This document shows, piece after piece, positions 20,595-26,070 of a stretch of DNA of 32,000 bases. The position numbers were made by a program, and so were the translations under genes. The stretch comes from an uncultured archaeon (GTDB lineage: Archaea; Asgardarchaeota; Lokiarchaeia; Sigyniarchaeales; Promethearchaeaceae): positions 41,799 through 73,798 of the forward strand of contig CAYRPF010000002.1 of the NCBI GenBank assembly GCA_964426185.1, given 5' to 3'. The notes beneath the pieces are model-generated. The model was not told the DNA's origin, made no database searches, and saw only the letters and a list, made by a program, of their open reading frames with translations. Position 1 is the stretch's first letter. Every line of letters starts with the position of its first letter.

Positions 20595-21839
20595 TTAAGT
20601 GGATTTTTGGGCTAACTTGATCAAAATCGCTTTCAACGACTCGATGTCAATGTTAGACTTAATTGCATGAGCTTCAACATGTGTTCTAGCGAAATTAAAA
20701 CCTTGTGATTTAATAGCGTCTTCAATTTCTTTCATACTCGAAACAGATATTTGTAATTTATCACAAATTTTATGAACATCATAATATCCCAATGGAAATG
20801 AGATTTCTTCCGATATTCGTTGCAGAGTTCTTTCAATGCGTGCTTTAGATGGAATAACTTCTTTTGGTACTTCTAAATTAATTTCATTTAACTCTTGTAC
20901 GAATTTATCTTCGTGAATTTCACCGATCCAAAGTGGTCCGCCAAAATCCAATTTAGATCCGCAATTTGGGCATTGATGTGGAACATTAAGTATATTTAAA
21001 TCCGTTGTTCCCCGCCAATCACATTTCGCACACCATAAAATATAACCAGTGTTTTGGATATTTGTCCGAATCGCCTCTTCTCCTTTAATAATTTGAACAA
21101 ACACCCGAATATAATGGTCAAAACTCACTGAAAGCATGGGTTTAATCGCTCTCATCAGAGGATGGGCGTGTTTCGCAATGTAATATAATAAAACACGAAG
21201 TCCAACTTCTTTAGAAAAGGTTGAACGGAGGGGAAAAACATTATATTTTCTGATACATGCATTTTTTCGAACTCCAAATAATACGGGAGTATCAGTAGCG
21301 GTTATCGCCAACAATCCTTCTTTTTTTATTGCGTGCAGTGCAGGAGAAATAAAAATATTTGGCGTTCCAAAGGGATCAATATCTATGATATCAAAAAATT
21401 CTCGTTTTACCTTAGAATTGGTCATTAGATGAAGGCAATCATCATTTGTTAAATAAATGGATTCGGATAGATGATTCAATTCCATATTTTTCCGAATTAA
21501 GTGTATTGCCAATGGATTAAGATCATTTGCCGTGATACTGAAAGGTTTATCGAGAAATTTTGCCAATCTTAAGGTTCTAATTCCTGATGCTGCCATTGAA
21601 TCCAAAATATGGAATGATTCCTCTGAATTTTTTTGCTGTTTGGAATTTTGGAATGCGCGATAGGCAAGAAGTGTTAATGAACGATTAATTTCTTGAATAG
21701 GATTATAAAATACGGGCATACTTTTTAACAATGCTTTGCCTCCCGTTGAAAATTCGGCTGGAGAATAGGTATAAAACTTAATTTCACCCTCTTCTGCAAT
21801 AGATAATTTTGCATCTATTCCCTCGAAACGCATTCCCAT
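20595..21839 (-). CDS. trm1: tRNA (guanine26-N2)-dimethyltransferase Trm1
   Basis: PVFYNP..NR, DSMAASGIR, ANDLNP, DIIDIDPFG, ITATD, EVGLRVL, HYIRVF, Zn ribbon CAKC..CPNCG and GPLWIG. Confidence 0.95.
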   Translation of the reverse strand: MGMRFEGIDAKLSIAEEGEIKFYTYSPAEFSTGGKALLKSMPVFYNPIQEINRSLTLLAYRAFQNSKQQKNSEESFHILDSMAASGIRTLRLAKFLDKPFSITANDLNPLAIHLIRKNMELNHLSESIYLTNDDCLHLMTNSKVKREFFDIIDIDPFGTPNIFISPALHAIKKEGLLAITATDTPVLFGVRKNACIRKYNVFPLRSTFSKEVGLRVLLYYIAKHAHPLMRAIKPMLSVSFDHYIRVFVQIIKGEEAIRTNIQNTGYILWCAKCDWRGTTDLNILNVPHQCPNCGSKLDFGGPLWIGEIHEDKFVQELNEINLEVPKEVIPSKARIERTLQRISEEISFPLGYYDVHKICDKLQISVSSMKEIEDAIKSQGFNFARTHVEAHAIKSNIDIESLKAILIKLAQKST

Positions 21840-21885: not shown

Positions 21886-22545
21886 GTGGGAAATTGGATG
21901 GGAAGCAAAAAAAATCCTTGGTTAAGTAAGCAAAAATCAGATCCTTATTATAAGCGAAGTAAGAATGAACATCATAGGGCGCGTTCATATTATAAACTTC
22001 AAGAAATCGATCGAAAATATCATATCTTGTCTGTTAATGGGCGATTTCCAAAAAAAATATTGGATTTGGGAGCAGCACCCGGTGCTTGGATAGAATATAC
22101 CTCGAATCAGTATCAATCTTTGCCTGAGAAACAACAATCCAAGAAGTTTCAAATTGTGGGAATTGACTTAACTTCTATTCGACCATTTTCTGAATTACCA
22201 AATATTAAATGTTTCCGAATGGATATTTTCAAGCCAGAATGTGAAGCGTTTATACAAGAATCTTCACCTTGGGATGTGATTCTTTCTGATTTAGCCCCCA
22301 AAACCGCAGGAGATTTTCGGGATGTCGCAATTCAAGAATCAATGGTACAAAAAGTGCTCTATTTTACCCGTTATCTGAAGATCGGAGGAAATATAGTAGT
22401 AAAAATATTTCAGAGTGATCAATCAAATGTTATTTTCGAGAAGTGGAAACCCGCTTTTCGATTATTTAAACGAATGAAGCCCTCCGCATCCAGACCAAAA
22501 AGTCGAGAGTTATATTTTATCGGAAAAAGTTATATTGGTTTGTAA
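21886..22545 (+). CDS. rlmE: RlmE/FtsJ rRNA 2'-O-methyltransferase
   Basis: DPYYK, RARSYYKLQEID, LDLGAAPGAW, ILSDLAP, VVKIFQ and PSASRPKSRELY (K-D-K-E tetrad). Confidence 0.93.
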   Translation: MGNWMGSKKNPWLSKQKSDPYYKRSKNEHHRARSYYKLQEIDRKYHILSVNGRFPKKILDLGAAPGAWIEYTSNQYQSLPEKQQSKKFQIVGIDLTSIRPFSELPNIKCFRMDIFKPECEAFIQESSPWDVILSDLAPKTAGDFRDVAIQESMVQKVLYFTRYLKIGGNIVVKIFQSDQSNVIFEKWKPAFRLFKRMKPSASRPKSRELYFIGKSYIGL

Positions 22546-22558
22546 AAAAGCCATTAAA

Positions 22559-23221
22559 TTACTTTGAAATTTTATCTGCTGGTTTCACTTTTTTTGAATC
22601 AAAAATTTGATGAAATGGATTACCCATATAGGGTTCTCCATCAATGGAACATAACAGCCAGTCAGTTAAATATGGGCACTTTTTGGGATTATATTGCTTT
22701 TGACCTTCATTACATTTCTTTGTGTAGGGACAGATAAAACAAGGTAAATCATTTAAGGTATCCCAAACGAGTTTTCCTGTCTTAGTTTGTTTTTTCGGGG
22801 TAATTCCAAAATCATCAATTTTGGTAATTTGATTAACCCAACGAGATTGGTACATGACTAAATTGGTCCGAATTTTAGGTGGATCTTTCGCTAGCAGTCG
22901 TTTGATGGATTTTTCTAATTCTTCAAGGGAAATTTTCAATTTTTCTTGGAGTTCATCCATCACTAACGAATAATTAGGTGCATTGGTTAAAGTCATCAAA
23001 ATTTGCTTATCAGTTGCAATATAATTAGTTTTTTTGGTTGGAGCTTTTTTAGGGGTTTTAGGTGGTTTTTCAGCCGAAACTTTTTTTGCTACTTTTGTTT
23101 TTTTTGAAGAATTTACTTTTTTTTTAGAAACTTTTTTTTTTGTGGTAGTTTTTTTAGATTTCTTAGCAGTTGAAGCTTTTTTCTTTTTAGAAGCTTTTGT
23201 TGTTTTCTTTTTAGCCACCAT
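22559..23221 (-). CDS. RPC34/TFE-beta-like protein (winged helix plus [4Fe-4S] domain) with Lys-rich N-terminal extension
   Basis: The C-terminal PCFICPYTKKCNEGQKQYNPKKCPYLTDWL matches the RPC34/RPC39 Cx2Cx5Cx10-11C..WL motif. The central KQILMTL..MDELQEKLKISLEELEKSIKRL is wHTH-like. There are 29 Lys in the first 64 aa. Confidence 0.8.
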   Translation of the reverse strand: MVAKKKTTKASKKKKASTAKKSKKTTTKKKVSKKKVNSSKKTKVAKKVSAEKPPKTPKKAPTKKTNYIATDKQILMTLTNAPNYSLVMDELQEKLKISLEELEKSIKRLLAKDPPKIRTNLVMYQSRWVNQITKIDDFGITPKKQTKTGKLVWDTLNDLPCFICPYTKKCNEGQKQYNPKKCPYLTDWLLCSIDGEPYMGNPFHQIFDSKKVKPADKISK

Positions 23222-23307
23222 ATTTTTTAAATAAATATTCCAAAACTAAAAAAATTTTTTATTGTGTATTTTAATAAATCATTGATAAAGAATTCGGAAT
23301 TAATCAC

Positions 23308-24300
23308 ATGAATCTTGTAAAAAATCCACAACTCAACCCTCAAGAAGTTAAGGAATTGTTGAGTTCTGATATCGGAGAAATCCTTACCAACAAAGAAGTT
23401 CAAATCTTAGAGCATAAATATAGTTCACAAGATTACAACCCGAGTCGTGTTTCTCTTCAGTTTGCGCGAGTTAAACAAAAAACAAAAGCAATTCAACCGT
23501 TGTTACTGCAAAAGATTGTCTCTGAGAAGAACCGATGGTGGTTTTTAACGGGTTTGGATTTTTTGGATTCAATATTTGCCAGTTCTTATAATCTTAAACC
23601 TGGATTAGCTTCGAATTCTTTAATAATGGTTTATGGAAAAGCACGCTCTGGTAAAACTCAAATCTGTCAGACAATCCCCGTCAAGTATTACCGGAATTTC
23701 TTTTCCCAGACCAAAAAGTCTCATAAATTTGTGCTATACATAGATACCGAAGGAACATTTCGCCCTAACCGTATTAAGGAAATTGCACAGTTTTCTAAAC
23801 TGGATGGAGAGCAAATTTTAAATCAAATAATCTCCGTCACTGCCCAAAATTATTCCCAATTCAACATGTTTCTTAAAAAAGTGGAAGATATTTTCAAAAC
23901 TCACCCAATTCGGTTATTATTGATTGATTCCTTCACTCGAATTTATCGATTGGCCATGGCAGAATCTCCGCAAGATACTCCCTTAATTATTTCCAATATG
24001 GCGCAAAATCTCAGGAAAATTCGAAATTGGGCTCAAAAATATAATCTTTTTGTATGTTTAACTTCTCAAGTTTCAAGTCGTCTTGATGAAGGGCATTTTT
24101 TCGAAGTTTCCCCCATTTTAGCCACCACTTTAAACCGCTATATAAAATCTTGGATTATGCTTGGAATTAATGATTCTGAAAATGAAATAAGAGGGATTTC
24201 TGGACTTCGCTATGCTCATGTCATCAACAGCGATTGTCAACCCGAATCCATTGTAAAATTTTTGATCACAGCTCGTGGATTGGAAAATTACTATGAGTAG
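23308..24300 (+). CDS. RadA/Rad51 paralog
   Basis: TGLDFLD, VYGKARSGKTQIC (Walker A), LYIDTEGTFRPNRI, LLLIDSF (Walker B), LTSQV and FLITARGL. Confidence 0.85.
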   Translation: MNLVKNPQLNPQEVKELLSSDIGEILTNKEVQILEHKYSSQDYNPSRVSLQFARVKQKTKAIQPLLLQKIVSEKNRWWFLTGLDFLDSIFASSYNLKPGLASNSLIMVYGKARSGKTQICQTIPVKYYRNFFSQTKKSHKFVLYIDTEGTFRPNRIKEIAQFSKLDGEQILNQIISVTAQNYSQFNMFLKKVEDIFKTHPIRLLLIDSFTRIYRLAMAESPQDTPLIISNMAQNLRKIRNWAQKYNLFVCLTSQVSSRLDEGHFFEVSPILATTLNRYIKSWIMLGINDSENEIRGISGLRYAHVINSDCQPESIVKFLITARGLENYYE

Positions 24301-24386
24301 CGTACAAATCAACTGCTTTTTTTTCGGTCCAATTCAAATTGTTTGTTCAAAAAGGCTTAAATTTAATTTTTAGTTTTTAAAAGTTG

Positions 24387-24857
24387 ATGAGCGATAATCT
24401 GCAATTACAAGTAGGTAAAAAAATTCCTTGGATTTTTGGGTCGAAAATGCGAATTCCAAAGGTAAATTATCCAATGTATCAAGATTCTAAAATGAATTTA
24501 CCCACTCCTGGAAGAAGCTTTATTTTATTAGTTATATACTTAGTATTGTTTTGGTTAATGATGGGTGGAATTTATATTTCAATTCGTAATCCAATTCCAT
24601 TGGGATCATCGGGCCAAAATAATGTTTTATGGCTTTATCCGTCAACCAGCGAGGCATTTATTATTGAATCTGTCGTGGCTGCAACTTTAATGTTTATTGG
24701 GGGCGCAGGTTTCTTAATGCTGTATAACTCCACCAAACATGCATATAATTACAGTTATAGCATCAAGTTATTAATTATCGCAATTGCGGCGATAGCTTTG
24801 AGTTTTGGATTACTTCAATATATGATCGCTGTGAAATCAGGGGATTTACAACAGTAA
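24387..24857 (+). CDS. OSTC/DC2-like (OST3/OST6 family TM domain) oligosaccharyltransferase accessory subunit
   Basis: Three TM segments. GGIYISIRNPIPLGS, AFIIESVVAATLMFIGGAGF and the last TM align with the DC2 pattern GGIIYD...PPSVGS / [20 protein letters not shown]. No thioredoxin domain. Confidence 0.78.
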   Translation: MSDNLQLQVGKKIPWIFGSKMRIPKVNYPMYQDSKMNLPTPGRSFILLVIYLVLFWLMMGGIYISIRNPIPLGSSGQNNVLWLYPSTSEAFIIESVVAATLMFIGGAGFLMLYNSTKHAYNYSYSIKLLIIAIAAIALSFGLLQYMIAVKSGDLQQ

Positions 24858-24909: not shown

Positions 24910-26070
24910 CTATTCAACTCGTATTATATTGTATTCTCCAAAATCTACTAAAACCCGATGCAATCCTCGGAACTTTTTATCAAACTCTTTATCCCGTGAA
25001 TCAATTCGCAGTTTACCTTGTGGCAAGGTGGAAACTTTGAATTTTGTTGCAATTATCTGTACGTTTTTCAAGCCGATTTGTTCCAATACCTTAGGGCTTA
25101 ACTGCAGATTTCCCCGACCAAAAACAAAACCTTGTGCTCCAATTGGCGTAACTACCAACTTTACATTTCGATCTTTGGTTTGAGCAATTAATTCTTCCTC
25201 GTTTAAATCTTTAGCCACAATTTTTTGGCGATAGTATAAATCAACTCCCAACAAGGTTTTCGGTTGTTTTATTTTTTGTGCAATGGCTCGGGTGGTGGTG
25301 CCAGGTCCCAATAAATAGTACCAATCGGGATAAGTATTTTCCCACTCCATTAAAATCCACTCTGCTATTGAAGCTTGGTTGGCAAATTCTTCTTCAGTGT
25401 GCGGACTGGCCATTTTAGAAGGTTGCGAAAGGGTGGGGGAATATGGAACTTTCAAATAGCCGTATAGTCGAGATACCACACGATTATGGCGGAATTCTTC
25501 TTCATCAATATCCAAAACTTCGGCTTCTCGCAGGGGTATTTCATTATTCAAGTATTTTAACACTAATTCTGCAGCTTTTTCAGGATTGACCGCAAACACA
25601 GAAGAATGAATTTTAACCCCCCCGGGTATTCCCAAACAAGGAATTTCTAAGTCCACACTCTTACATATATCCCGTGCGGTTCCATCTCCTCCGATGAAAA
25701 CCAGCAGATCTACCGGAATCACTTTCATCAATTGAGCCGCCCAAACGGTATGCTGTGCGGTAGTCTGAAAAAGTTTAGTATTTTGTATTCGAGAATCTTG
25801 CAAATATTCATAAGAGAAGGGAAAATTTTTCAGAATCTGTTCGCCCATGATGCCTTGAACGGTAATAAAATGGATTTTTTCTTGAATTGGTTCTAGATGT
25901 TCCAAAAATTCTTTTGCTCGTTGCGGGGATTGAATCTGCGCATGATGAAGTAGAGCCTGCTTAATTACTTCTTCACCATCAGAACCTTTCATTCCAATTT
26001 TGCCACCCAATCCTGCGATGGGGTTCAGAATAAAACCTATTTTTTTCTTGCTAAACACTGTTTGTTTCAT
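24910..26070 (-). CDS. ATP-NAD kinase family protein
   Basis: IGFILNPIAGLGG..GMKGSDG, GGDGTARD, GIPGGVKIHSSVFA, GPGTTT, TLLGVD and TPIGAQGFVFGRGNLQLS. Confidence 0.85.
   Translation of the reverse strand: MKQTVFSKKKIGFILNPIAGLGGKIGMKGSDGEEVIKQALLHHAQIQSPQRAKEFLEHLEPIQEKIHFITVQGIMGEQILKNFPFSYEYLQDSRIQNTKLFQTTAQHTVWAAQLMKVIPVDLLVFIGGDGTARDICKSVDLEIPCLGIPGGVKIHSSVFAVNPEKAAELVLKYLNNEIPLREAEVLDIDEEEFRHNRVVSRLYGYLKVPYSPTLSQPSKMASPHTEEEFANQASIAEWILMEWENTYPDWYYLLGPGTTTRAIAQKIKQPKTLLGVDLYYRQKIVAKDLNEEELIAQTKDRNVKLVVTPIGAQGFVFGRGNLQLSPKVLEQIGLKNVQIIATKFKVSTLPQGKLRIDSRDKEFDKKFRGLHRVLVDFGEYNIIRVE

Follow-up and report, generated by a model that had tools for sequence, protein, structure and literature searches.

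A lysine-rich N-terminal tail on a TFE-beta ortholog of a Harpocratesius-like Lokiarchaeial archaeon

A gene on the reverse strand of the window, by which we mean the whole stretch of 32,000 nucleotides that was analysed, encodes a protein (P0001) in which a winged helix and a four-cysteine domain are preceded by about 65 residues of extremely lysine-rich, disordered sequence. In our reading, the gene is the ortholog of TFE-beta in a Harpocratesius-like Lokiarchaeial archaeon (Promethearchaeales). The interpretation that we favour, and hold to be reasonably likely, is that the product is the TFE-beta of TFE-alpha/beta with an added polycationic tail that tethers it to DNA or another polyanion by non-specific electrostatic attraction.

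The coding sequence (22559–23221, reverse strand) specifies 220 amino acids plus a stop codon, and a recount bore out this reading frame, as well as the 29 lysines and one acidic residue that a preliminary description had given for the first 64 positions. Those positions form the Lys-rich disordered N-terminal tail (residues 1–64; 23030–23221, reverse strand), delimited by composition, AlphaFold2 modelling and a start-codon scan; AlphaFold2, run on a 41-row alignment, gave no secondary structure for residues 1–65 and a pLDDT of 51–62. The winged-helix domain (residues 66–135; 22817–23026, reverse strand) begins at a conserved N-Y-x-x-x-D-K boundary motif and was assigned from its pLDDT, from matches to winged-helix proteins and from the profile alignment with RPC6, with residues 67–134 modelled as a canonical winged helix of H-S-H-H-S-S fold (pLDDT >90). 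It is joined by a flexible basic linker (residues 136–156; 22754–22816, reverse strand; low confidence over 135–155, with low pLDDT at 141–148) to the 4-Cys FeS-type domain (residues 157–193; 22643–22753, reverse strand), which was assigned from its invariant cysteines, the RPC6 match and the predicted TFE-alpha interface and lies in a stretch modelled confidently (156–200). A C-terminal extension with a basic end and a conserved Y-x-G-N-P-F-H motif (residues 194–220; 22562–22642, reverse strand) completes the protein. The arrangement described earlier, a wHTH-like segment followed by Cx2Cx5Cx11C-xxLxxWL, was recovered, the cysteines being spaced C161-x2-C164-x5-C170-x11-C182 and followed by PYLTDWL. 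A KTPKKA segment and a second TPKK, both also described earlier, were located at residues 55–60 and, within the linker, at 141–144; the linker TPKK is not conserved, with TVKK, DSKK or KPVK at that place in orthologs. On the opposite strand, a 66-aa Phe-rich open reading frame (23034–23234, forward strand) was rejected as merely the complement of the tail Lys codons.

The assignment of the core to the RPC34/TFE-beta family, proposed in the preliminary description, is upheld. A profile (A1) built from 41 core sequences returned human RPC6 as its top PDB match (E 9.9e-10), with the winged helix aligned to RPC6 residues 84–149 and the third winged helix plus FeS region to 228–315, and 18 of the 41 members individually matched Pfam RNA_pol_Rpc34 (PF05158; best 1.6e-6). 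P0001 alone matched the last 40 positions at the C-terminus of PF05158 (E 0.0043) with 17 bits, below the gathering threshold of 28.4, and matched human RPC6 with an E of 0.013; its Cys domain aligns with RPC6 residues 284–315. The match of the Cys domain to RPC34, which had been suggested as a check, is clear with the family profile. C161, C164, C170 and C182 are invariant in all 41 sequences, a proline and W188 are invariant or nearly so, and, to judge by these Cys ligands, the 4-Cys domain presumably holds a [4Fe-4S] cluster. Structural searches were less specific: Foldseek with the full model found no match at E ≤0.001, the best being RPC6 (7d58_P; 2.6e-3), whose high rmsd reflects the flexible link between the two domains, and VIA-align, whose matches covered just the winged helix, gave a Z of ~11, tied among many winged-helix proteins that include the RPC6 winged helix (8iue_P). 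No TFE-beta model of NCBIfam matched the protein, which drew just weak wHTH matches (Sta1, Lrs14). A PF05158 search of the whole genome gave no match because the Pfam model is too distant from this lineage, whereas profile A1 recovered the gene at 2.1e-56.

Genomic occurrence is that of a basal factor. The RPC34-like gene is single-copy in the window's genome (G000; 92% complete), which also carries a TFE-alpha gene on contig C11, and of the 151 genomes sampled from the phylum, 148 have homologs. The occurrence of TFE-beta in Asgard archaea was already known (PMC7289017). Homolog searches led to 'hypothetical proteins' of Promethearchaeota/Lokiarchaeota, including Candidatus Harpocratesius; the protein of G155, a genome of the window's genus, is identical to P0003 (assembly GCA_021498095.1), and P0004 from Candidatus Harpocratesius sp. 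is near-identical.

Modelling with TFE-alpha, another check proposed at the outset, placed the FeS domain on TFE-alpha, and the predicted heterodimerization through this domain was borne out in silico. The complex received a score of 0.80, whereas the highest among three controls was 0.30. Of 80 solved complexes, 58 come up to this mark, as do 2 of 110 mismatched pairs; contact agreement between runs was 80% or more, and the pLDDT of the partner was 73 or higher. In the model, residues 149–193 and 204–207 of P0001, the latter within the C-terminal extension, contact the N-terminal helix, helix 3, the post-WH helix and the C-terminal tail of TFE-alpha. In Saccharolobus, the TFE-beta FeS domain and the TFE-alpha winged helix and C-terminal tail suffice for dimerization (Blombach et al.; PMC4495717), and the modelled interface comprises these same minimal dimerization domains, although the pass may partly stem from likeness to the solved RPC62/39 and TFIIE complexes. 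It could still be argued, from the sub-threshold Pfam match of P0001 and from N- and C-terminal extensions that are unusual for TFE-beta, that the protein is a lineage-specific redox-sensing wHTH regulator or a nucleoid protein that shares an RPC34-type Cys domain; we regard this as exceedingly improbable, given that the gene is the sole RPC34-like gene in its genome, that a single tree shows its near-universal family passing gradually into compact canonical forms, and that the predicted TFE-alpha interface passes its controls. Two peculiarities may be noted here. The TFE-alpha gene itself (L001:1324–1839, reverse strand, G000:C11) has no ATG, GTG or TTG at the start position of its orthologs (M-P-E-K-K-K...), where it reads ATT instead, with an in-frame TGA three codons upstream; translation starts at ATT, or else the assembly is in error. 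A metagenomic protein of 1590 aa (P0053) has six separate stretches that match the TFE-beta Cys-domain region and may represent repeated RPC34-type Cys modules.

With the core taken as TFE-beta, the reality of the tail depends on where translation begins. Initiation at a downstream Met, which had been named as an outcome that would undo the tail, was checked and ruled out: between codons 2 and 75 there is no in-frame ATG, GTG or TTG, and because codons 75/76 fall within helix 1 of the winged helix, no downstream start leaves an intact domain. The MVAKKK start is kept in orthologs with 46–77% core identity. Upstream lies a conserved promoter-like element of 26 nt (23238–23263, reverse strand) that hardly differs between the window and three orthologous loci (L066, L067 and L068), and within its span a TATA-like TTTTTTTA box (23247–23254) is centred ~30 nt upstream of the ATG, a distance that suits a leaderless or very short-leader predicted mRNA. 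From the lack of an alternative start, the conserved MVAKKK and the upstream TATA-like element, we take the tail to be translated. In a second genome of the same genus (L017; G089:C338), the promoter-like element lies ~100 nt upstream of MVAKKK, compared with ~40 nt elsewhere, and an in-frame upstream ATG adds seven residues; an insertion in the 5' region is a possible origin of this layout.

The intergenic region is narrow, with a divergent gene for a RadB-like Rad51-family ATPase (23308–24300, forward strand) beginning just 86 nt away in the window and 64–86 nt away over the loci compared. The other neighbours are an FtsJ/RrmJ methyltransferase (21886–22545, forward strand), convergent with TFE-beta, Trm1 (20595–21839, reverse strand), a stand-alone OST3/OST6-family membrane protein (24384–24857, forward strand) and NAD kinase (24910–26070, reverse strand). 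This neighbourhood of six genes, TFE-beta included, is conserved in three orthologous loci.

The composition of the tail is extreme. Residues 1–64 comprise 29 K, 9 T, 7 A, 7 S, 5 V, 4 P, 1 E and no R (45% K), and the tail contains the 40-aa window richest in Lys (21/40) of any ATG-started ORF ≥80 aa long in the genome of 3.26 Mb (34% GC); over its ~65 aa, the net charge is ~+28. At the nucleotide level, the lysines are encoded by 26 AAA and 3 AAG codons, A makes up 57% of the tail DNA and occurs in runs of 8–10, and contigs from four DNA sequencing runs (Logan) break in this A-rich region (23066–23176). The tail's own base composition predicts K 21%, N 11%, I 8% and stop codons 7%, whereas 23 orthologous tails have K 35%, S+T 28%, A 9%, D+E 4.5% and F+L+I+N+Y 8%; K outnumbers R by ~20:1, and hydrophobic or aromatic side chains are very scarce. 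A composition so much purer than its base prediction argues for selection on charge and disorder, and not on sequence. The high A content, the A-runs and the predicted leaderless or very short-leader mRNA might instead point to an A-rich 5' coding region that acts in the mRNA, as an unstructured leaderless start or a poly(A)-track attenuator, with lysine as a by-product, and M-x-KKK starts do occur on TFE-alpha, aIF2-gamma, RadA and zinc-knuckle TFE-beta as well. Such a role would account for the first few codons at most and not for 48–250 residues, the class of the interspersed S, T, A and V codons is maintained, and frameshifted forms were not seen; we therefore consider it very unlikely.

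The survey of Asgard orthologs that had been called for was carried out, and the tail is neither strain-specific nor universal but conserved at genus to family level. Lys tails occur in the window's genus (the window, G089 and G155) and in genus g54 of the same family, as well as in ~20 further metagenomic clusters. Across the 23 divergent K-tail orthologs, which form clusters <50% identical to one another, the tail varies from 48 to 250 aa, with like composition and no positional conservation, and it is always bracketed by a conserved M-[AV]-KKK start and the boundary motif. All sampled genomes of the sister family f2 and genus g53, which belongs to the window's own family f1, have instead an N-terminal knuckle (C-P-Y-C-G...R-H-K-C) followed by a mixed-charge helix, and some metagenomic forms combine the knuckle with a Lys/Ser-rich linker. 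Written in full, the f2/g53 element reads C-P-Y-C-G-x2-F-x-Y-L-x-R-H-K-C, followed by an E/R/K-rich helix (L018, L022, L024–L029, L031–L041, L107 and L108), with sub-threshold Pfam matches to C2H2/C2HC zinc fingers. In the other families examined in the phylum, TFE-beta is compact (113–195 aa from the first ATG, with just 3–50 residues beyond the Cys domain) and lacks a Lys tail, in line with the initial proposal that the factor gained its tail. The C-terminal extension of 20–30 residues with its Y-x-(G)-N-P-F motif is common to tail- and knuckle-bearing lineages and absent from the other Asgard TFE-beta examined. In a quick maximum-likelihood tree, the compact forms fall outside a starred clade that holds the extended ones; within this clade, three sets can be told apart, namely the knuckle family, a group with mixed knuckle/tail forms and a group in which Lys tails predominate. 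Close relatives can differ widely in the tail, P0025 having an N-terminal extension of 13 aa and P0027 one of 128 aa, while P0012 and P0014 have just ~10–15 basic residues; a long tail is therefore not essential.

Comparable Lys/Ser/Thr-rich tails are found on other proteins of the same genome. They occur at the N-terminus of aIF2-gamma (~100 aa; L070, C26:4492–6054, forward strand) and of RadA, where an acidic stretch follows (L074, C3:9335–10603, forward strand), at the C-terminus of UvrA (L077, C20:19434–22523, forward strand), and on an HdrC-like ferredoxin protein and two membrane proteins (L076, L069 and L071). The aIF2-gamma and RadA tails recur in g54 as well as across the window's genus.

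The tail of TFE-beta is thus an example of a habit that is widespread in the lineage, and the presence of such tails on membrane and ferredoxin-like proteins means that they are not confined to DNA-binding proteins. This breadth, together with the variable length, the AAA-dominated codons and long A-runs in a 34% GC genome, and the near relatives with little or no tail, would also suit a neutral low-complexity expansion by replication slippage at A-runs, tolerated because the segment is disordered and without a specific role in transcription. We consider that account unlikely: the composition is far purer than the base-predicted one, with no stops and almost no D/E, N, I, F, Y, L or R, the tail has been kept in 23 clusters that have diverged so far from one another, and it always sits between the conserved start and the boundary motif.

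A likeness to histone H1 had been put forward for the tail, and here the composition stood while the kinship did not. As in the H1 C-terminal domain and the Asgard tailed histones HLoB/HMpB (10.64898/2026.07.02.735847), the sequence is Lys-rich (>30–40%), disordered and highly basic. There is, however, no homology to H1: neither a GH1/GH5 globular domain nor a histone fold is present in the protein, neither P0001 nor any of the 41 family members matched the H1 globular domain (PF00538), and the tail is N-terminal and S/T-rich where that of H1 is A/P-rich. HC2 (PF07382) gave no match to P0001 at E up to 1, and sub-threshold low-complexity matches to ortholog P0006 and to other tails in the genome. 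The S/TPKK motifs, earlier taken as H1-type sites, were dropped as meaningful, being missing in 19 of the 23 K-tail orthologs (present in 4) and at chance level, a single [ST]PKK arising in 20% of tail shuffles (P = 0.2). The tail resembles H1 in composition only.

These results bear directly on the proposal that the tail is a module akin to H1 or to histone tails, which would condense DNA or be read and modified (phospho-TPKK, Lys acetylation) and so couple the basal machinery to histone-based chromatin. Its compositional nearness to H1 tails and the HC2-like matches speak in its favour, as does the presence in Loki-/Hod-type Asgard archaea of abundant tailed histones and an acetyltransferase, which, as a 2026 preprint suggests, may recognize Lys-rich disordered tails broadly (10.64898/2026.07.02.735847). 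Nevertheless, the lack of an H1 globular domain, the chance-level [ST]PKK and the like tails on aIF2-gamma and membrane proteins, which favour a generic polyanion-binding module, make the proposal quite doubtful. The link between initiation and chromatin is weakened because tails of this kind are carried by aIF2-gamma, RadA, UvrA and membrane proteins alike, and it is speculative. Equally doubtful, at present a long shot, is a broader conjecture in which the Lys-rich tails that Harpocratesius-like Asgard archaea carry on such core information-processing proteins as TFE-beta, aIF2-gamma, RadA, UvrA and the tailed histones would make up a proteome-wide set, read and written by the lineage's lysine acetyltransferases/deacetylases, that tunes basal initiation by the tail chemistry of chromatin; if true, eukaryotic regulation through tails would have a prokaryotic forerunner here.

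The electrostatic tether that we favour can be placed on the known geometry of the factor. In Saccharolobus, the TFE-beta winged helix has been placed across the DNA channel, and its wing lysines may contact the DNA backbone (PMC4495717). Since the tail, with a charge of about +28, directly precedes this domain, it is well placed to reach promoter DNA, and it probably adds non-specific DNA binding. The 4-Cys domain would dock on the winged helix and C-terminal tail of TFE-alpha, and the TFE-beta winged helix would span the channel and aid open-complex formation, both as in Saccharolobus. In front of that winged helix, the lineage has put a disordered K/S/T/A tail of ~65 aa, which may tether the factor, non-specifically and electrostatically, to DNA or another polyanion; this tether could raise the local TFE concentration on DNA and so stabilize the pre-initiation or open complex. 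The zinc knuckle that sister lineages carry in the same position may do the same job.

Searches of the literature on Asgard TFE-beta and on its possible lysine-rich or N-terminal extensions turned up no account of the tail or of the other N-terminal modules. It is apparently unreported that one Asgard order rebuilt the TFE-beta N-terminus in at least three ways (Lys tail, C2HC knuckle, and both together) and added a conserved C-terminal motif that is modelled on TFE-alpha, and Lys-rich tails in these genomes are not limited to histones. This is a known factor with a tail that has apparently not been described before, of moderate evolutionary and biochemical interest. The practical consequences are modest: the 'hypothetical proteins' should be annotated as TFE-beta, and Asgard transcription constructs should include the tail or knuckle.

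Among known systems, TFE-beta of Saccharolobus solfataricus (Sso0944; PMC4495717) shares with the window protein a single winged helix followed by a Cx2Cx5Cx10-11C FeS domain and the status of a single-copy basal factor, its heterodimer with TFE-alpha being experimental whereas that of the window protein is modelled. Sso0944 is much shorter (winged helix ~1–73, cysteines 92–112) and starts directly at the winged helix, whereas the window protein adds the 65-aa Lys tail and a 27-aa C-terminal extension with G-N-P-F-H. Human RPC6/RPC39 (POLR3F; 7a6h_P, 7d58_P) is the best solved-structure match to the family, with each position aligned through the FeS motif and the L/M-x2-W-L that comes after it; RPC6 differs from the window protein in its three winged helices, in being a stable subunit of Pol III and in lacking a polylysine tail. 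The zinc-knuckle TFE-beta of f2 and g53 has the same core, the C-terminal Y-x-N-P-F extension and an M-A-KKK start, with the knuckle and mixed-charge helix in place of the Lys tail. Eukaryotic TFIIE-beta/Tfa2 has a basic flexible C-terminal region beside winged helices that face promoter DNA, but it is without an FeS domain, and its basic region is much shorter, less extreme and at the other end of the protein compared with the window tail. The likeness is a functional analogy, probably of independent origin.
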